From Candidatus Saccharimonadota bacterium (GTDB taxonomy: Bacteria; Patescibacteriota; Saccharimonadia; Saccharimonadales; Saccharimonadaceae), in contig JBDSDX010000001.1 in assembly GCA_039920285.1 (NCBI GenBank), positions 360,001 to 392,000 on the forward strand: DNA of 32,000 bases, written 5' to 3'. Shown here in pieces: positions 4,675 through 29,653 of the stretch. Within the stretch, counting starts at the first letter, position 1. Each line of letters begins with the position of its first letter. The notes under the pieces were generated by a model. The model had not been told where the DNA came from. It worked only from the letters and a program-made list of their open reading frames with translations, and searched no databases. Made by a program: the position numbers and the translations under genes.

Positions 4675-5652
4675 ATGCAAGATATTGATTTTGATGAACT
4701 AGACCGCGCAGTCAGCTCAACGATGGAGCCTTCTACTCCGACGCCAGCTCCTTCGAGTGATGCCGTTACTGTTTCAGATTCAGCACCAAAACCCGTGTTG
4801 AGCGGCACACCCGCAGCTCGTCGAAGTTCTGGACGATTTATGGACATGGTTCATTCTTCATCTGACATGCGAAACGGAAGCCCGGTACCAGAACGTTCAG
4901 CACCTCGACCAGTAGAAGTGTCAGCTCCTGAGCATACCCCAGAACCTTCAGTTGAACGTAGTACCGACTGGCCTGATCCACTTGATTTTCATGGTTTTGA
5001 CAAAGAAGACGAAGCCGAAGTACCAGCCCCTGTCCCGGAAACTCCTGAACTCGAATTGATTGAAGATGATCTTCCTGAACCAAAACCACTCGAAACGCCT
5101 TTTTTGAGTGATGCAAAAGTTGAAAAACGACCACTCGGTGCGTTTTCTAGTTCTGAAACACCAGCAACTGATCCATTTGATGATCTTATGAAAGTGGAAG
5201 CCGAAGAAACACCTGAAGTGAAAAAGGATGAACCAGAACTCTTGCTGGCTGCATCTGACGAAGACCTCCTTACTGCTTTGACTGCTGAAAATGAAGCTGA
5301 TGACAAAGAAGAAACTCCTATGGAGACGCCTATTGTTGAACAAGAAGCTGAGCCTGTCGTTGAAGAGACACCAGAATCACCAGCTCTGCAACAAGAAGAA
5401 GTTGTCAGACCTGTTGAAACAGACACAGCACCGGCTGGTCCTACCTCGATTCATCAACAGTATAAAGAACAGCCAAGCACGACTAATCAGCCATCTGGCG
5501 CTATTTATGATACCGAAGCTTACCATCAGCCGTTGGCTTATGTAGCAAAGAAGAAATCTGGCGGACTCGTTATTCTCTGGATCGTCGGGCTTATCATCAT
5601 CGGTGGTGGTATTGGCGCTGCAATCTACTTTTTTGTGCTCCCACTTCTCTAG
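4675..5652 (+). CDS. Hypothetical acidic Pro/Glu/Thr-rich protein with a C-terminal transmembrane anchor
   Basis: 325 aa. Low-complexity acidic body and a single hydrophobic segment (LVILWIVGLIIIGGGIGAAIYFFVL) at the extreme C-terminus. AAGGA lies 5 nt upstream of the ATG. Confidence 0.7.
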   Translation: MQDIDFDELDRAVSSTMEPSTPTPAPSSDAVTVSDSAPKPVLSGTPAARRSSGRFMDMVHSSSDMRNGSPVPERSAPRPVEVSAPEHTPEPSVERSTDWPDPLDFHGFDKEDEAEVPAPVPETPELELIEDDLPEPKPLETPFLSDAKVEKRPLGAFSSSETPATDPFDDLMKVEAEETPEVKKDEPELLLAASDEDLLTALTAENEADDKEETPMETPIVEQEAEPVVEETPESPALQQEEVVRPVETDTAPAGPTSIHQQYKEQPSTTNQPSGAIYDTEAYHQPLAYVAKKKSGGLVILWIVGLIIIGGGIGAAIYFFVLPLL

Positions 5653-5672
5653 GCTGAGACTCCTCACTCGGC

Positions 5673-5678
5673 TATAAT
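5673..5678 (+). promoter_or_regulatory. -10 box TATAAT 7 nt upstream of the pcrA ATG (leaderless-type)
   Basis: TATAAT at 5673-5678 and ATG at 5686, with no Shine-Dalgarno sequence between them. Confidence 0.45.
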
Positions 5679-5685
5679 AGAACTA

Positions 5686-7797
5686 ATGGATTTACTCGAG
5701 GGTTTAAACGAGGCTCAAAAACAGGCCGCGCAAGTTGTTGTGGGTCCACTTTTGATATTGGCAGGTGCGGGGAGTGGTAAAACAAAGACGCTGACACACC
5801 GCATTGCTCGTTTAGTCGCCGAAGAAGGTATCTGGCCAAGCCAGATTTTAGCAGTCACTTTTACCAATAAAGCGGCTCGCGAAATGCGTGAACGACTCAG
5901 TTACCTCCTTCGCCAAGAGAACAACCGCAACTTTATGCCGTGGATGGGAACATTTCACGGTATTTGTGTCCGTTTGCTTCGGATGGATGGTCAATCGATT
6001 GGTATCAGTCGTAACTTTGTTATCTACGATGAAGCCGATCGACAGGCGATGATCAAACAGGCGATGAAACAATTATCTATTTCTGAAAAAGAAATCAAAG
6101 CCTCTCAAGCGAGCAGCACAATTTCAAATGCCAAAAATGAAATGCGTAGTCCTGATGACTACGATGCTACCTCGAAGTACCCTTATGAGAAGAACATCGC
6201 TAAAATCTACAAACGCTACGAGACGATGCGAAAAGAAGCTGGGGCGCTTGATTTTGACGACCTTCTGCTCGACGGTGTGCGCCTACTTCGTGATGTTCCT
6301 GAACTCCGCACTAAATGGCGTGATCATTTCAAACATATCTTGATCGATGAGTATCAAGATACTAACGCTGCTCAGTACCAACTCGTGAAGTTATTGGTCA
6401 ACGAAGACAATAATATTTGTGTCGTGGGTGATGACTGGCAATCGATTTATAGTTGGCGTGGCGCTGATTTTACAAATATCTTAAACTTTGAACGGGATTT
6501 CCCAGGTGCGACAGTTGTGAAACTGGAACAAAACTATCGAAGTACCGGTAATATTCTTGAAGCGGCCCATAACGTTATTTCCAAAAATACTCAACGAACC
6601 GATAAAAAACTATGGACGGCGGAAGGTGCTGGTTCACCAGTCCAGGTTCATGGTGTCTATGATGAGGCCGAAGAGGCGAATTTGGTAGGTGAGCGAATCT
6701 CAAGCCATGTATCCTTGGGTGCCCGTAATTATAACGATTTCGCAGTACTCTATCGTACTAACGCTCAGAGCTACACATTGGAACGGGCATTTTTGCAGTT
6801 ACGTATCCCCTACCAGCTTGTTGGTGGTGTGAGATTCTACGATCGAAAAGAGGTGAAAGACATCATTGCGTATCTGAGGTTGTTATATCAACCAAATGAT
6901 CGAATGAGCTTTACGCGTATCGCCAATGTACCACTTCGTGGAATTGGGGTAACGAGTCTAGAAAAGTTTTTGAATTGGCAATCTGGACGAGGAATCGATA
7001 TTATTACGGCACTGACAGAAGTTGAGAATGCAGGTGTGGTAACGGGCAAGGCGAGAACTGCACTTGGTGCACTTGGTGCTAAATTAAGAAAAGTCGCTGA
7101 ACGTATCGATGATGCCTCACCAACCGAACTTATCGAAGCAGTTATTTCATCGACTGGCTACCGTGATTACATTCTTGATGGGACGCCACAAGCCGAAGAT
7201 AGAGAAGCTAACCTTGGCTCGTTATTATCTGACGCCCAGAATTTTAGTGCACTCCCTGATTTCCTCGAAGAAGTTGCGTTGATGTCGAGTACAGATACAG
7301 AAAACGAAGGTAAGAAAGTCACCTTGATGACCCTTCATGCTGCCAAAGGTCTCGAATTTCCGGTCGTATTTATTGTCGGAATGGAAGAGGGAATTATTCC
7401 AAATGCTCGAGTCTTCGAAGCTGGGCCAGCTGCTTTGGAAGAAGAACGACGCTTGGCCTATGTTGGGATGACTCGTGCCCGTGAAGAATTACATCTCAGT
7501 TACGCCTACAGCCGTTTGCAGTTTGGTCAGCGGAGCTATAATCCAATGTCACGATTTATTACTGATATGGGAGACCAGGTAGCGAATATTTCTGCTAATC
7601 CTGGCATTATGGGACAACGCAACGACGAGCCATTTTATAGTGATGAAATTGGGTTTGAGATTGGCGATGCAGTCAAATCTACGGCCTTTGGTGAAGGTGA
7701 AATTATCGACGTTGACGGCATGGCAGTCACGATTGCCTTTAAAAACGGACAAACCAAGAAACTGAATGCCGAATATGCTCGACTTGAGCGACTCTAG
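5686..7797 (+). CDS. pcrA: ATP-dependent DNA helicase, UvrD/PcrA family
   Basis: 703 aa. Contains AGAGSGKT, TFTNKAA, DEYQDTN, QNYRS, TLHAAKGLEFP and VGMTRA, plus a C-terminal Tudor-like tail. Confidence 0.93.
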   Translation: MDLLEGLNEAQKQAAQVVVGPLLILAGAGSGKTKTLTHRIARLVAEEGIWPSQILAVTFTNKAAREMRERLSYLLRQENNRNFMPWMGTFHGICVRLLRMDGQSIGISRNFVIYDEADRQAMIKQAMKQLSISEKEIKASQASSTISNAKNEMRSPDDYDATSKYPYEKNIAKIYKRYETMRKEAGALDFDDLLLDGVRLLRDVPELRTKWRDHFKHILIDEYQDTNAAQYQLVKLLVNEDNNICVVGDDWQSIYSWRGADFTNILNFERDFPGATVVKLEQNYRSTGNILEAAHNVISKNTQRTDKKLWTAEGAGSPVQVHGVYDEAEEANLVGERISSHVSLGARNYNDFAVLYRTNAQSYTLERAFLQLRIPYQLVGGVRFYDRKEVKDIIAYLRLLYQPNDRMSFTRIANVPLRGIGVTSLEKFLNWQSGRGIDIITALTEVENAGVVTGKARTALGALGAKLRKVAERIDDASPTELIEAVISSTGYRDYILDGTPQAEDREANLGSLLSDAQNFSALPDFLEEVALMSSTDTENEGKKVTLMTLHAAKGLEFPVVFIVGMEEGIIPNARVFEAGPAALEEERRLAYVGMTRAREELHLSYAYSRLQFGQRSYNPMSRFITDMGDQVANISANPGIMGQRNDEPFYSDEIGFEIGDAVKSTAFGEGEIIDVDGMAVTIAFKNGQTKKLNAEYARLERL

Positions 7798-25010: not shown

Positions 25011-25245
25011 AGCACATTTTGTGATTCTGTCTACTAGTAGTGATTTACCAAGGTGAAACTTGAATAAAAAGCTGTCAGCGAGTGGGAAGATCAGGACGCA
25101 AATGAGCCTACCAAAACTGTCGTACGGGTACCGAAACTCTTTCAATTAACTAATCGGTCGACATGTACCCCTTTCTCCATTAGGAGAAGCTAAGACTTAG
25201 TAAGGTAGAGCCCTCGCGAGTAATCCGAGCGGCAGGAGAACGATA
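25011..25245 (+). promoter_or_regulatory. Structured 5' leader of about 235 nt, riboswitch-like, class undetermined
   Basis: No ORF in this stretch. ttctcc (25173-25178) can pair with ggagaa at 25183-25188 or with the RBS ggagaa at 25235-25240. Also has a long-range helix gggtac (25126-25131) / gtaccc (25165-25170) and a gcc-ctcg...cgag-c-ggc hairpin just before the RBS. Confidence 0.35.
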
Positions 25246-26391
25246 ATTCGTAATCAGATCACGTCGAGCTCAGCTCTTCAAGGATCAGTTGCTCTTTCAG
25301 AGCAACAGCCAATTGTCCGATCAAGCCGCAAGGCGAAGAATCGGATCAAATCGTCCACTATCGCCGTATATTCGAGTATTTTTGTACTCCTTGTTGTCCT
25401 CATCGCGATTGGATACCGGGCACCTCAACAGGTGTCAGGTGTTGCCAACACCGCGACCCTCCCAGGCAACTTAAGTAATGATCAAGAGAAGGCGACCGTC
25501 AATGACGTTGTCGCCACTAATATTGCTGCCAGCGTCGCTGCTGCGACTAATCTTTCAGTTGCACCGTCTGTTAGTAGCCTTGCTATCTCAACCCAAATTG
25601 AAAGTCAGTTACCAACTTCTGATGACTCTTCGATTTCTAAGCCATCAATTATCCAGGTTTCTGCTGCTGGCCGCAACATCGTCAGCTACACAGTTGCTGA
25701 CGGCGATACGACAGATTCAATTGCTGCTAAATTCCGTATCACAAAAGACACTCTTAAATGGGCGAATAACATGGTGTCCGATGCATTAACGGTTGGTCAA
25801 TCGATACAAATCTTGCCACGTGACGGTCTTATATACACAGTTAAAGCAGGTGATTCTGTTCAAGGAATCGCTGACAAATATAAAGCCGATTCATCTGTTA
25901 TCACGACCTACAATGATCTCGAAATCAGTGGTGTTACCCCTGGTCTTAAGATTGTTATTCCAAATGGTGACCTTCCAACCAACGAACGTCCTGGGTATAC
26001 CGCACCTGTTTCAGTTTCACGAGGCGGTGGCTTCTACGCTGGATACCGTGCTGGTTCAGTCGGTAACAAATATGCCTACGGTAACTGTACATGGTACGCT
26101 TACGAGCGTCGTGCAGCCCTTGGTAAACCAGTCGGAAGTTTCTGGGGTAACGGAGGTTCATGGAGTTATAGCGCAGCAGCCGCAGGCTACCGTGTCGACA
26201 ATACTCCTGAAGCTGGTGCTCTGCTTGTCGAACGAGGAAGCCCCGGACACGTTGCAGTCGTCGAGTCAGTTGCAGCTGACGGTAGTATCGTTGTGAGTGA
26301 GATGAATAACTCAGCATATGGCGGCTTTAATATCGTCAATAACCGTACGATTAGTGCCGGTCAAGCAACGCTTTACGTCTACGTTCACTAG
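25246..26391 (+). CDS. Membrane-anchored peptidoglycan hydrolase with 2x LysM and a CHAP domain; start probably non-canonical (ATT)
   Basis: The frame is open from 25204. AGGAGA (25234-25239) lies 6 nt before an in-frame ATT at 25246. The upstream extension encodes KAKNRIKSS plus the transmembrane helix TIAVYSSIFVLLVVLIAIGY. The ORF-track GTG at 25432 would delete this anchor. LysM motifs are YTVADGDT and YTVKAGDS. CHAP residues are GNCTWYA and GHVAVVE. Confidence 0.8.
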   Translation: MRNQITSSSALQGSVALSEQQPIVRSSRKAKNRIKSSTIAVYSSIFVLLVVLIAIGYRAPQQVSGVANTATLPGNLSNDQEKATVNDVVATNIAASVAAATNLSVAPSVSSLAISTQIESQLPTSDDSSISKPSIIQVSAAGRNIVSYTVADGDTTDSIAAKFRITKDTLKWANNMVSDALTVGQSIQILPRDGLIYTVKAGDSVQGIADKYKADSSVITTYNDLEISGVTPGLKIVIPNGDLPTNERPGYTAPVSVSRGGGFYAGYRAGSVGNKYAYGNCTWYAYERRAALGKPVGSFWGNGGSWSYSAAAAGYRVDNTPEAGALLVERGSPGHVAVVESVAADGSIVVSEMNNSAYGGFNIVNNRTISAGQATLYVYVH

Positions 26392-26457: not shown

Positions 26458-27756
26458 ATGTTTGTTGATACCGCCAAGGTCTATGTTCAAGCTGGTCGCG
26501 GCGGTAATGGTGCCGTCAGTTTTCGTCATGAAATTTATGTCGACAAAGGGGGACCAGACGGCGGTGATGGTGGCAAAGGTGGCGATGTTATCTTCGTCGG
26601 TACCGGTGGTCTCAACACCCTCATTGACTTTCGTTATAAGCCGGAATTAAAGGGTCAACTCGGCCAAGCTGGTGCGAAGCGCGATCGTCACGGTAAATCA
26701 GGTGATGCCATCTACGTCAAAGTCCCTGTGGGAACGATCGTTAAACGAGACGGTCGTATTATTGCTGATATTATCGAAAATGACCAAGAAGTTGTCGTCG
26801 CTAAAGGCGGTGATGGTGGATTTGGTAATGCTCACTTTAAGTCATCGGTTCGTCAAGCACCACGTATCGCTGAAAATGGCGAAGATGGCGAGACGTTTGA
26901 AGCTGAACTAGAACTGAAGCTTCTGGCTGACGTTGGTTTGGTTGGATTCCCGAATGCCGGTAAATCAACTTTCTTGAGTGTGGTGAGTAATGCTCGCCCT
27001 GAAATTGCTGATTATGCCTTCACGACCCTCTCACCAAACCTTGGTGTCGCGGATATTGATGACGGTAGTCTACTGATTGCGGACATTCCTGGCCTGATTG
27101 AAGGTGCGAGTGAAGGCAAGGGCCTTGGTGATGCGTTCCTTCGTCATGTTGAACGTACCGCGGTGCTCTTGCATCTTATTGATGCATACGAAGATGATGT
27201 TGCGAAAGCATACCAGACTATTCGACACGAACTTGCCTCATATAATGACATTCTTATTGATCGACCTGAAATTATTGCTTTGACCAAAACTGAAGGTCTT
27301 GACGAAGAAATTATTCAAATGCAAGTTGATGCGGTGAAAGCTGTTGCTGGCGACCGCCTCGTATTTGCTATCTCTTCACCAGCCCACAAGGGTATTACGG
27401 AAGTACTTCGTGCACTTCGTATTGAAGTTGAAACAATTCGTGAAGTAGAAGAACTTGATGATGAAACTGATGGTTTGCCTGTCATTTCTCTTTCTGCTGA
27501 CCAAGTTGCCTTGTCTTGGAATGTCGAGAAAGTTACCGAGAATGGACAAGAGGTCTTTCTCGTTACTGGTCACAAGATTGAGAAATTTGCTCGACGCACT
27601 CGTTTTGAAACTCATGAAGGCCTCAATCGCCTTCGAGACATTATGAAAAAAATGGGCATTGCTTACGCTTTAACCCGCGCAGGTGCGGTTGGGGATAGTG
27701 TTATCCGTATTGGTAATGATACGTTTAGCCTTGTTGAACAAGCGAACGACAACTAG
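26458..27756 (+). CDS. obg: GTPase Obg/CgtA
   Basis: 432 aa. Glycine-rich Obg fold (GGNGAVSFRHE, GGDGG), G domain (GFPNAGKST, DIPGLIEGA, TKTE) and a C-terminal OCT-like domain. Confidence 0.93.
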   Translation: MFVDTAKVYVQAGRGGNGAVSFRHEIYVDKGGPDGGDGGKGGDVIFVGTGGLNTLIDFRYKPELKGQLGQAGAKRDRHGKSGDAIYVKVPVGTIVKRDGRIIADIIENDQEVVVAKGGDGGFGNAHFKSSVRQAPRIAENGEDGETFEAELELKLLADVGLVGFPNAGKSTFLSVVSNARPEIADYAFTTLSPNLGVADIDDGSLLIADIPGLIEGASEGKGLGDAFLRHVERTAVLLHLIDAYEDDVAKAYQTIRHELASYNDILIDRPEIIALTKTEGLDEEIIQMQVDAVKAVAGDRLVFAISSPAHKGITEVLRALRIEVETIREVEELDDETDGLPVISLSADQVALSWNVEKVTENGQEVFLVTGHKIEKFARRTRFETHEGLNRLRDIMKKMGIAYALTRAGAVGDSVIRIGNDTFSLVEQANDN

Positions 27757-27762
27757 AAATCA

Positions 27763-27791
27763 TTGACTTTATAGCCAATTAGTGCTATAAT
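27763..27791 (+). promoter_or_regulatory. Near-consensus sigma70-type promoter TTGACT-N17-(TGc)TATAAT
   Basis: TTGACT at 27763-27768, a 17-nt spacer, TG at 27783-27784 and TATAAT at 27786-27791. It is the only promoter in the window with both a good -35 element and an extended -10. Confidence 0.6.
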
Positions 27792-27797
27792 TGTATT

Positions 27798-28220
27798 AAC
27801 TCTTATGGAAATGCTTTGCATTGTCATCAGAGTCGCCTTCCGTAGGCCTTGGAGATTCATCTCCTCATGGTTCGGCCATGGGGTGGGTTCGTCCCGAGAG
27901 CGTCTAACGCCTCGAACGACCAGCTTGAAGCGCGACGTCAATCCGCTCGCTGAGTATTGTGGTGATCGTGAAGCTTCCTGCTACGACACCCATAGCCCAC
28001 CTCCTGGTCCTACGGATCAAAAATCTTTGCCAATCGGCTGCCCGCGACCCCCCGTCAGGGGCGCCAACCGGTAAAGATGGGACCTCCTCGAGGTTCCAGT
28101 GACCGCGGATGCGGTGAATGAGAAGGACTCCCCCCAGTCCTATGCCCCCAGCCTCTTCACCCTCCGCGGTCACACCCGCACACTCTTTCGATCTTTGCAC
28201 ACCCAAGTGGTGTGTTTTTT
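27798..28220 (+). ncRNA. Unclassified GC-rich structured RNA of about 420 nt
   Basis: Has its own promoter and a terminator (cacacc/ggtgtg plus T6, 28198-28220). Hand counts give 60-68% GC. Several strong helices are present, including an 11-bp perfect stem 28099-28109/28163-28173 and a 9-bp stem 28023-28031/28070-28078. There are C-rich loops. I found no tmRNA, RNase P or SRP hallmarks. Confidence 0.55.
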
Positions 28221-28228
28221 GTTATGCT
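28220..28228 (+). promoter_or_regulatory. Extended -10-like box TGtTATGCT 6 nt upstream of the sbcB ATG
   Basis: TG at 28220-28221, TATGCT at 28223-28228, ATG at 28235. It overlaps the end of the terminator T-tract. Confidence 0.35.
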
Positions 28229-28234
28229 AGAGGT

Positions 28235-29653
28235 ATGGCCCAAACTTTTTTCTTTTACGACCTTGAGACTTCAGGGCTGAGTCCGCGCGACGATCGTGTG
28301 ATGCAATTTGCTGGTATCCGAACCGACATGAATCTCAAAACGATCGGGGAACCTTATAACATTTTAGTGAAATTAAATGATGACGTATTGCCAAGTCCTG
28401 ATGCTTTGATGGTAACTGGTATTACCCCACAATCAACGATTGAAGATGGATATACAGAAGCTGAATTTGCAAGAATGCTGACAGAAGAAGTCTTCACACC
28501 TGATACGATTTCCGTGGGATTTAATAATATTCGTTTTGACGATGAATTTATTCGGCATCTTCTTTGGCGTAACTTCTATGATCCATATGAATGGGCGTGG
28601 AAAGATGGTCGTTCACGTTGGGACTTGCTCGACGTGGTACGTATGACTCGGGCGCTTCGACCTGAGGGTATTGAATGGCCATTCGTTGACGGTAAAGAGA
28701 GTAACCGACTTGAGCTCTTGTCAAAGGTTAACAAGATTGACCACGAAAAGGCACACGATGCACTCAGTGACGTCGAGGCTTTAATTGCAGTGACGGGATT
28801 AATCAAAGAAAAACAGTCACAACTTTATAATTATCTGTTGAAACTAAGAGATAAGAAAGAAGTGAAAGGTCTTGTGAATCTTGACGATAAGCAACCTTTT
28901 GTCTATGTGAGTGGCCGCTTTGACGGCCAATTCCATAAAGCAACTGTCTCATTCCCTTTAACGAGTGGCAGGAACGGTAATGTGATCGTGTATGATCTTC
29001 GAGATGACCCAACGCCATTTGTTACTCTTTCTCAAAAAGATATCGAGAGTCGTATTTTCGCTAAATGGGAAGACCGCCAAAAAGATGACTTTGTGAATAT
29101 CCCGATTAAAGAATTGCAATATAACCGTGCGCCTGCGGTGGCACCACTTGGTGTTCTCGAACAGTCTGATGGATGGAACCGGATTGGTCTTAGTGAAGAT
29201 ATCGTGACAAAACACCGAAATATTTTGTTGGCACATCCTGGATTTGCCGAAACGATTCGCAGTATCTTTGAGAAGAAGGCAGACTTTAAACCAGCAACCG
29301 ACCCTGAAGGTCAGCTATATGATGGGTTTGTCGGTGATATGGATACAATGCGTATTGAAAAAGTTCGTCAATCTGATGAACAGGCCCTGGCTGATTTGCA
29401 CCCTGAATTCGTTGACGAACGATTACCTAAATTACTTTTGCATTACAAAGCGCGTAATTATCCACGTAGTTTAGCCGAGGATGAAGCGATGGCATGGGAA
29501 GAATGGCGCGCACAGCACATTCAAAAGCAACTTCCGATGTTTTTGAAACGACTCCAGGCAGTCTCTAGTGTGACCACTGACGACAACAAGCAGTTCATCT
29601 TACAAGAGCTGCAACTATGGGCTGAGAGTATCGTTCCAATCGACGCTGATTAG
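28235..29653 (+). CDS. sbcB: Exodeoxyribonuclease I
   Basis: Strong similarity throughout to E. coli ExoI as I recall it (FFFYDLETSG, GFNNIRFDDEF, RNFYDPYEW, SRWDLLDV, RPEGIEWP, HDALSDV). I placed the start at the ATG at 28235, not the ORF-track start at 28118. Confidence 0.9.
   Translation: MAQTFFFYDLETSGLSPRDDRVMQFAGIRTDMNLKTIGEPYNILVKLNDDVLPSPDALMVTGITPQSTIEDGYTEAEFARMLTEEVFTPDTISVGFNNIRFDDEFIRHLLWRNFYDPYEWAWKDGRSRWDLLDVVRMTRALRPEGIEWPFVDGKESNRLELLSKVNKIDHEKAHDALSDVEALIAVTGLIKEKQSQLYNYLLKLRDKKEVKGLVNLDDKQPFVYVSGRFDGQFHKATVSFPLTSGRNGNVIVYDLRDDPTPFVTLSQKDIESRIFAKWEDRQKDDFVNIPIKELQYNRAPAVAPLGVLEQSDGWNRIGLSEDIVTKHRNILLAHPGFAETIRSIFEKKADFKPATDPEGQLYDGFVGDMDTMRIEKVRQSDEQALADLHPEFVDERLPKLLLHYKARNYPRSLAEDEAMAWEEWRAQHIQKQLPMFLKRLQAVSSVTTDDNKQFILQELQLWAESIVPIDAD

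Follow-up and report, generated by a model that had tools for sequence, protein, structure and literature searches.

A predicted structured RNA gene between obg and sbcB in a Saccharimonadales genome

The 32-kb stretch of DNA analyzed here (hereafter the window) comes from a Candidatus Saccharimonadota bacterium (contig JBDSDX010000001.1, positions 360,001 to 392,000) and very probably carries, between obg and the leaderless promoter of sbcB, an independent gene whose product is a structured non-coding RNA about 423 nt long. This gene of a Saccharimonadales (TM7) genome has its own near-consensus extended -10 promoter and would be the version found in the clade of the window of an undescribed, lineage-specific and rapidly diversifying RNA family. 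Loci of relatives are designated by L numbers and their proteins by P numbers; 164 loci were scanned for sequence patterns.

Transcription signals, fold and conservation of the RNA

No 11/12 match with an extended -10 exists in the window apart from the promoter at 27763-27791, which agrees with the original prediction that TTGACT-N17-TGcTATAAT is its only near-consensus promoter. The pattern TTGAC-N15-TGnTATAAT occurs a single time in the 32 kb, is matched in 0 of 100 shuffles and is present in 32 of the 164 loci, nearly always directly 3' of the obg stop codon. Transcription is predicted to start near 27798 and to stop at an intrinsic terminator, whose hairpin and T6 had likewise been recognized from the sequence and were recovered here (stem 28197-28215, T6 to 28220). 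The contrast in composition proposed between this segment and its poorer flanks also holds, with a GC content of 0.53-0.65 in 100-nt segments across 27800-28200, versus 0.33-0.47 in the flanks and a mean of 0.459 for the window. Promoter, terminator and G-U pairs all indicate the + strand as the RNA strand. The features of the locus are the following, in the order of transcription:

27763-27791, + strand: sigma-70-type promoter, with -35 TTGACT (27763-68), a 17-nt spacer and extended -10 TG-c-TATAAT (27783-91).
27798-28220, + strand: predicted primary transcript, a non-coding RNA of ~423 nt with bounds given by promoter and terminator.
27799-27833, + strand: 5' hairpin H1, ACUCU.AUGG.AAUGC-UUU-GCAUU.UCAU.AGAGU, in the minimum free energy (MFE) fold.
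27839-28016, + strand: 5' domain, closed by UCCGUAGG (27839-46) / CCUACGGA (28009-16) in the MFE fold.
28023-28078, + strand: domain 2, a 9-bp stem (28023-31/28070-78) around a hairpin presenting a C6 run (28048-28053) in the MFE fold.
28079-28097, + strand: short hairpin GGGACCUC-CUC-GAGGUUCC of the MFE fold, whose loop and 3' flank read CCUCCUC.
28099-28173, + strand: 3' core domain, with outer helix GUGACCGCGGA..GGUGAA.GAG / CUC.UUCACC.UCCGCGGUCAC in the MFE fold.
28197-28220, + strand: intrinsic terminator, GCACACC-CAAGU-GGUGUGU (to 28215), then T6.
28220-28237, + strand: sbcB promoter, outside the RNA, with extended -10 TG-t-TATGCT (28220-28228) 6 nt before the ATG at 28235, fused to the terminator T-run.

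The computed MFE of the + strand is -180.4 kcal/mol, compared with -134.9 +/- 5.1 for 100 dinucleotide shuffles (z = -8.9), while the - strand reaches z = -5.9 against its shuffles. Every helix that had been paired by hand in the original prediction recurs in this fold at the same positions, including GGAGA/UCUCC (27851-55/27860-64), CGAG.GCGU/ACGC.CUCG (27895-27914) and GGUG.UCGU/ACGA.CACC (27961-27990). The 5' domain contains a long helix, GGGUGGGUU (27881-89) / AGCCCACCU (27994-28002), and four small hairpins. The outer stem of the 3' core comprises 11 bp (28099-28109/28163-28173) and encloses both the hairpin AGGACU-CCCCCC-AGUCCU (28124-28141) and a second C run, a C5 at 28145-49. Independent folding of the RNAs of the window and of the related locus L162 yields the same modular architecture, in which a 5' hairpin is followed by a closed 5' domain, a stem around a C-loop hairpin, a short hairpin, a long 3' domain with another C-loop hairpin, and the terminator.

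The closest relatives, L162-L164, encode SbcB and Obg proteins that are 83% and 87-90% identical to those of the window, and their obg-sbcB gap of 481-482 nt aligns over its full length. Their promoter is nearly identical to that of the window and their terminator is identical. RNA identity is 62-68%, versus 44% and 35% at fourfold sites of obg and sbcB, respectively, and 0.50 +/- 0.016 when the RNA is aligned to shuffled sequence; judged from these figures, the element is under purifying selection, weaker than that on the proteins and far stronger than neutral. Single-sequence nhmmer and blastn searches with the window RNA returned no match in 80 syntenic genome loci with Obg 66-81% identical, which at first suggested an orphan. 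This reading was dropped when the homologues in L162-L164 surfaced, which happened only once the contigs of the closest SbcB proteins had been fetched. In addition, an independently sequenced 3-kb contig (L081, Logan SRR26386594) is 100% identical across the element.

The structure derived by RNAalifold from the three-sequence alignment of the window, L162 and L164 has 128 pairs, 91.7% of them paired, and 17 pairs are changed on both sides, compared with 6.0 +/- 2.0 in column shuffles (none of 500 as high) and 1-4 with slid partners. Compensatory changes in homologous loci, which the original prediction had named as a way to check it, are thus present. In H1, 13 pairs are 97% paired with 3 changed on both sides, and the helices of the 5' domain (helices 6 and 7 of the alignment) are 97-100% paired with 2 double changes. 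These changes support selection on structure without being conclusive, since only two lineages contribute to them and the alignment also served to derive the structure. The interior blocks that are invariant between the window and L162 are the loops CCCCCCGU and CCCCAG, together with GUUCGGCCA, GGGnUCGUCC and the outer 3' helix; the CCCCCCGU block of domain 2 is the same in the window and L162-L164 although the stem sequence differs. The homologue of the short hairpin (28079-28097) in L162 and L164 is GGGAGCU-UCCCCC-AGCUCCC, with a C5 loop. Example k-mers of the window clade are CCCTCCGCGGTCAC and GTTCGGCCA.

A hypervariable RNA family at the obg-sbcB junction

All relatives of the Obg and SbcB proteins of the window belong to the Saccharibacteria, which are episymbionts on high-GC Actinobacteria. 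Among their loci, 128 distinct obg-sbcB junctions were distinguished. Their lengths span 3-2539 nt, with 45 junctions below 150 nt, 53 of 150-800 nt and 30 above that. Long gaps cannot be aligned with one another in their interiors, an all-against-all blastn comparison finds similarity at the gap edges only, and profile nhmmer searches reached just the 3' ends of a few additional loci. Many relatives with gaps of 270-700 nt nonetheless have a common architecture, barely detectable by sequence search: a promoter right after the obg stop codon, a 5' hairpin at the position equivalent to H1, a GC-rich 3' helix CC(r)yrGAGGG.../...CCCUCyry(G)GG, and a terminator. Of the 53 junctions of 150-800 nt, 41 have a TTGAC-N15-19-TAnnnT promoter no more than 60 nt from the obg stop and 35 have both promoter and T-run; the window promoter (27763-91) has this form and position. 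Members devoid of small open reading frames (sORFs) have two to four hairpins with C5-C9 loops. In several relatives, among them L085, L090, L097 and L098, a long-range closing helix was found as well (e.g., AUAGCUAGGU...ACCUAGCUAU); its window counterpart (27839-46/28009-16) closes the 5' domain only, and the CCUUC(C)GUAGG motif of this domain matches the 5' strand of the relatives' closing helix in both sequence and position.

The 3' helix connects the window to these loci. A covariance model of this helix (R1), built from nine relatives with the window clade excluded, gives 15 + strand matches at E<0.005. In the window it matches exactly 28099-28173 with 18.1 bits, corresponding to E = 3.9e-4 in the 478-nt syntenic gap and to 0.64 in 781 kb, so that the window can with moderate confidence be assigned the family 3' core helix with its C-loop hairpin. 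Across 13 distinct relatives, pairing in the 16-bp helix amounts to 95%, with changes on both sides in 10 of its 16 pairs, a value reached in 0 of 500 shuffles; slid controls are 46-51% paired, and the alignment was itself fitted to model R1, which favors pairing. As + strand scores of the model (58-76 bits) lie far above those of the - strand (18-26), the strand of the family is fixed as +. RNAalifold applied to six full-length relatives recovered the closing helix, the 3' helix and the terminator independently. The obg-sbcB RNA is a new lineage-specific family of the Saccharimonadales, hypervariable, fast-evolving and often lost. In the 3' core, GAGGG/CCCUC never varies while adjacent pairs covary (e.g., L098 3344-3419; window 28099-28173), which suggests a sequence-specific role beyond pairing, possibly as a Shine-Dalgarno (SD)/anti-SD-like element or a protein site.

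Many of the 600-700-nt versions contain an SD-led ORF of 26-45 codons, with a GC content at third codon positions (GC3) of 0.90-1.00 and an [S/G/H]PP motif near codon 10; GC3 is 0.30-0.46 in the genuine genes of the window. The motif is often followed by D(G)I(D/T)N, and the C-terminus is hypervariable and rich in G/A/S/T/C. Such ORFs were seen, for example, in L012 (5296-5972), L013, L014, L016, L019, L006, L089, L041, L033, L044, L048, L059 and L086. Other SD-led ORFs are basic mini-ORFs of 5-7 codons, Arg/Lys-rich (+x+), often ending in Pro and mostly terminated by TAG, with a hairpin directly after. Examples are MRLRP, MKRRP, MYRRKP, MHRYRP, MKYRP and MRKRHP, and additionally MSRSPP and MNRSPP in L038; the loci concerned are L009, L038, L013, L014, L113, L101, L123, L004, L026, L001, L035, L010, L156 and L087. 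These mini-ORFs resemble ribosome-arrest leader peptides. The sORF peptides match no NCBIfam family, and a search of 5.8 billion proteins with them retrieved two hypothetical peptides of Saccharibacteria and nothing outside this group; a host origin of the sORFs is therefore not supported by homology. One ORF, MFIPPDPTEG (L005/L085/L090), was rejected as coding evidence, since its synonymous-looking differences lie in a hairpin loop or are compensated in a helix. No conserved SD-led ORF was found in the window clade, where the only candidate, a 43-codon GUG ORF at 28099, is cut to MTA-stop in L162.

The obg-sbcB junction is a general variable spot. L002 (5294-5402) is a deletion remnant that has lost everything except the 5' hairpin, the terminator and, of the closing helix, the 3' strand, and L094-L096 are devoid of the RNA, though their near relatives L097-L099 have it. 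Conversely, L013, L016 and L040 harbor two tandem units with two promoters. Unrelated protein genes are inserted at the junction in L145/L152/L155/L160, L130, L066, L060/L063, L031, L023 and L112; among their products are a ~300-aa protein, a 205-aa Ala/Glu/Arg-rich protein (GC3 0.83) and a 106-aa protein with a signal-peptide-like hydrophobic N-terminal stretch. A blastn search against phages and plasmids gave no match and hence no evidence of a mobile-element or phage origin.

Coding potential, known RNA classes and the border with sbcB

The 89-aa (+) and 100-aa (-) ORFs listed in the original prediction exist, and its view that they arose by chance is borne out by their lack of codon periodicity, by frame-breaking indels and by the lack of a Pfam domain in either ORF. 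Mismatches against the closest homologue are spread evenly over the codon positions (42/44/44 and 39/36/41), 13 of the 16 indels are not multiples of three, and gene calling finds no gene in the homologous gap of L162. A protein-coding reading was rejected on the even codon positions, the mere 3 in-frame indels out of 16 and the Pfam result. The earlier statement that the RNA is of no recognizable class stands too: no Rfam 15 family matches the element at gathering score, and a search of 27700-28280 at E<=10 gave only chance-level microRNA and small nucleolar RNA matches, none of them credible and none to RF00023, RF00010/11, RF00169/RF01854, RF00013 or RF01066. In the whole window, only lysM-TM7 and tRNA were matched at gathering score, and no family was matched in the gap of 23 relatives' loci (15 searched at gathering score, 8 at E<=1). 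The 6C model (RF01066) in particular matched neither the window at gathering score nor 27700-28280 at E<=10 nor eight family members at E<=1. The models of RNAIII (RF00503) and RsaE/RoxS (RF01820) gave no match, ARAGORN found no tmRNA, and a literature search returned no description of an obg-sbcB RNA.

The element is flanked by obg (domains GTP1_OBG, MMR_HSR1 and DUF1967) and by the exonuclease I gene sbcB (RNase_T, ExoI_SH3 and ExoI_C). In nearly all of the ~128 distinct junctions, a TAnnnT box (TATAAT, TATACT or TATGCT), often with a preceding TG, ends 6-7 nt before the sbcB ATG, and it is kept at gaps from 22 nt to 2.5 kb, with or without the RNA. From the position of this box irrespective of the RNA, sbcB is predicted to be leaderless and self-sufficient, with its own extended -10 promoter, which makes the RNA a separate unit rather than an sbcB leader. 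AGAGGT forms the discriminator region of sbcB and is not conserved as an SD (e.g., TAGATATATG). The short-gap loci L043, L027, L094 and L095 have the same hairpin, T-run and GTTATGCT directly behind obg; as they use the same terminator for obg, the RNA gene is an insertion between the obg stop codon and the obg terminator, a finding that speaks against an sbcB leader or attenuator.

Several observations on the surroundings of the element deserve mention. A -10 box 6-9 nt before the start codon without an SD is seen for many genes, including sbcB and obg (window starts 5686, 11217, 14296, 17475, 20374(-) and 26458), and leaderless mRNAs are apparently frequent in this Saccharimonadales genome. 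A fused module of terminator hairpin, T-run and TGnTAnnnT recurs at 978-1012, before a tRNA-Glu (1055-1129), and at 28197-28228; with TGnTAnnnT immediately after it, the T-run of one unit forms the upstream part of the extended -10 of the next. A lysM-TM7 RNA (RF03005, 73.5 bits) lies at 25106-25238, upstream of the gene for a LysM/CHAP cell-wall hydrolase (25432-26391). Of the 23 relatives' loci searched, 14 have it conserved at the equivalent position. SbcB models are often N-terminally extended by 15-95 residues (488-567 aa; 511 aa in the window, 28118-29653), as in P0013, P0037, P0040, P0084, P0103, P0114 and P0116. This over-extension arises because no stop codon interrupts the frame across the GC-rich, stop-poor region of the RNA and terminator (...RRVFCYARG-M); the extensions of P0013 and the other models are unrelated to that of the window and revealed no further members of its clade. 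Both the 89-100-aa 'hypothetical proteins' and the extended SbcB models look like annotation artefacts.

Proposed function and alternative explanations

The C-rich loops that the original prediction had pointed out are real and are the best-conserved interior features of the RNA. Three of only four runs of at least five C on the + strand of the window fall inside the element, and their computed unpaired probabilities are 1.00 (C6, 28130-35), 0.83 (C6, 28048-53) and 0.82 (C5, 28145-49). Across 14 family members, runs of at least four C have mean unpaired probabilities of 0.64-0.99, compared with ~0.3 for other C residues, and runs of at least five C are almost always in apical loops (unpaired ~0.8-1.0). 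The transcribed strand of the 53 mid-size junctions has 71 C5+ runs versus 14 G5+ runs. From these predicted folds, C-rich apical loops are a recurrent and functional-looking feature that stays constant while the stems change. The fold could be regarded as a scaffold presenting several such loops, i.e., the C6 at 28048-53, the C6 at 28130-35, the C5 at 28145-49 and the CCUCCUC hairpin (28084-90). These loops would serve as trans-acting seeds that pair with G-rich RNA stretches, either SD-like sequences or G5-6 tracts, and such pairing could tune the translation or the stability of several targets simultaneously, in the manner of 6C, RsaE/RoxS and the 3' domain of RNAIII. The abundance and stability that the original prediction ascribed to the RNA would follow from its promoter strength and GC content, and the suggested pairing with G-rich ribosome-binding sites from analogy. 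By analogy, the element may be a trans-acting multi-C-loop RNA that works like these three while lying outside their families, a reading that we put forward tentatively; high expression, action in trans and G-rich RNA partners are what we infer for it.

Several points weigh against this proposal. A target search in the 32-kb window found few G5 runs and none at start sites, and SD targets are possibly scarce, many genes looking leaderless. As the transcripts of many relatives carry SD-led sORFs, the ancestral role may have been mRNA-like, and the C-runs could be by-products, for instance former Pro codons or the result of a general GC/C enrichment. Furthermore, full-length covariation of the window RNA comes from two lineages, its 3' domain is tied only modestly to the wider family (18.1 bits, and E = 0.64 if no synteny prior is applied), and the family is dispensable, with 45 of the 128 junctions being shorter than 150 nt and deletion remnants existing.

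The main rival to pairing in trans is a protein-titrating sponge, whose C-loops would sequester a C-preferring RNA-binding protein (for instance KH-domain KhpA/KhpB-type, cold-shock-domain, S1 or Rho) in the way the GGA loops of CsrB/RsmZ sequester CsrA. The two to four C5-C9 loops of each of 14 members fit the multivalency expected of a sponge, the C-run persists between variable loop flanks, as might be expected of a low-specificity protein site no less than of a seed, and no RNA target was found in the window. However, no candidate protein is linked to the locus, whose neighbors (a LysM/CHAP protein, Obg, ExoI and UvrA) are unrelated, and the known C-loop RNAs (6C, RsaE/RoxS and RNAIII) work by base pairing, so that we consider a sponge rather unlikely. 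A role directed at the host is a far bolder idea, in which a hypervariable, strongly transcribed cargo locus would deliver 6C-like C-loop RNAs and, in relatives, sORFs with near-100% GC3 aimed at the high-GC actinobacterial host. The Actinobacteria on which these episymbionts live have a conserved 6C with C-rich loops (PMC6486639), the element is GC-rich (57-65%) in a 46% GC genome, the sORFs of relatives have a GC3 of 0.9-1.0 versus 0.30-0.46 in genuine genes, and hypervariability would fit an arms race. Nevertheless, no similarity to 6C is seen even at E<=1-10, the peptides have no homologues outside the Saccharibacteria, transfer of RNA to the host is without precedent here, and selection for a GC-rich, stable RNA would also explain the GC3 enrichment; altogether, the idea is highly improbable. 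Alternatively, the junction could be a recombination hotspot that gathers GC-rich DNA of foreign origin or fast turnover, and the element its decaying cargo: what is left of a unit that bore an sORF, functionless today except for its promoter. The junction does vary from 3 to 2539 nt with unalignable interiors and some inserted protein genes, losses and remnants occur (L002, L094-96), and the sORFs of relatives are missing from the window. A relic is nonetheless very unlikely in view of the RNA identity between the window and L162 (0.62-0.68 versus 0.35-0.44 at neutral sites), the compensatory pair changes, the invariant loops and the identical copy in an independent run (L081).

The order of promoter, structure, terminator and ATG is superficially that of an attenuator, the terminator T-run abuts the sbcB -10 box (28215-28228) and no obg terminator precedes the RNA, which means that obg transcripts must run through it. 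These features could speak for a cis-acting element, be it an sbcB leader or attenuator, a structured 3' untranslated region (3' UTR) stabilizing obg, or a means of occluding the sbcB promoter through strong transcription that ends right on top of it. An sbcB leader or attenuator was rejected because of the conserved leaderless sbcB promoter, and the cis-acting explanations taken together appear improbable: the sbcB -10 box is kept in loci with and without the RNA, AGAGGT is no conserved SD, no conserved anti-terminator was seen (the only candidate, a CACACC repeat in the window, is absent from L162), the hypervariable interior is unlike that of a ligand-sensing leader, and the conserved C-loops and compensatory changes would be left unexplained. 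The size, GC richness and strong promoter of the element are typical of housekeeping RNAs, and gene callers predict an 89-aa minus-strand ORF in the identical Logan contig (L081). A divergent RNase P RNA, tmRNA, 6S or SRP RNA, or a small protein gene (the 89-aa or 100-aa ORF), is nevertheless effectively refuted. Besides the negative Rfam (E<=10) and ARAGORN results, the RNA is absent in about one third of relatives (45 of 128 junctions) and unalignable among close relatives, at ~80% identity of the flanking proteins, which is impossible for an essential conserved RNA. A protein gene is contradicted by the lack of codon periodicity, the frame-breaking indels, the lack of a Pfam domain and the lack of a gene call in L162.

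The multi-C-loop RNA proposed here can be compared with several well-studied systems. 6C is a small RNA of two hairpins, under ~100 nt, and RsaE/RoxS and RNAIII act through base pairing. The element and 6C (RF01066) both have hairpins with a C-run in the apical loop; at ~423 nt, however, the element is branched, hypervariable and restricted to the Saccharimonadales, and it has no RF01066 match even at E<=10. 6C pairs with G-rich mRNA sites without the need for a chaperone (PMC6486639) and is strongly transcribed and highly conserved in sequence across Actinobacteria (PMC5014011). With RNAIII of S. aureus (RF00503), the element has in common a large size (~0.5 kb), a strong promoter, multiple hairpins and C-rich loops that are kept while the sequence drifts fast. 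Moreover, RNAIII is a dual-function RNA that encodes hld, and many relatives of the element carry SD-led sORFs in the transcript. In contrast, there is no sequence or covariance-model similarity between the two, the window version has no conserved ORF and is not known to be under agr-type control, the loops are C5-C9 rather than UCCC, and the element belongs to another phylum, the Saccharibacteria of the Candidate Phyla Radiation (CPR). RsaE/RoxS (RF01820) and other C-rich small RNAs (sRNAs) similarly have several C-rich motifs, which there pair with SD regions, but RsaE/RoxS is only ~100-115 nt long and conserved in sequence, whereas the element has no match to its model and lies in a largely leaderless-looking genome. 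CsrB/RsmZ likewise repeat one loop motif on a variable scaffold and evolve rapidly in sequence, the motif being GGA bound by CsrA there and C5-C9 in the element. Finally, type I 3'-UTR sRNAs such as MicL and DapZ come to mind as the element sits right behind the obg stop with its own promoter and a terminator that serves obg in relatives; it differs in being several times longer, in having its promoter after rather than inside the upstream coding sequence, and in that no Hfq-type module is evident. Our best guess is thus that the element resembles known C-loop riboregulators by analogy, yet it falls outside their families, being larger, modular and hypervariable.

In the literature searched, the only regulatory RNAs described for Saccharibacteria and the rest of the CPR were a few cis-regulatory motifs, lysM-TM7 among them. 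As to annotation, the present analysis corrects the 89-100-aa ORF proteins and the extended SbcB models in this GC-rich, stop-poor region. Since related units occur in the cultivated strain TM7i (CP075337; L035, about 5297-5938, downstream of obg), both the function of the RNA and any link to the host relationship are directly testable; in the highly improbable case that it is directed at the host, this would be an RNA-level effector system of an epibiont. Saccharibacteria have tiny genomes and depend on actinobacterial hosts. If expressed as predicted, the RNA would be among the first large trans-acting RNAs proposed for the Saccharibacteria and the CPR, and would belong to a family recognizable by its position, promoter, 3' core helix and C-loops, at a locus whose cargo of RNAs and small peptides is replaced far more quickly than the genes around it.

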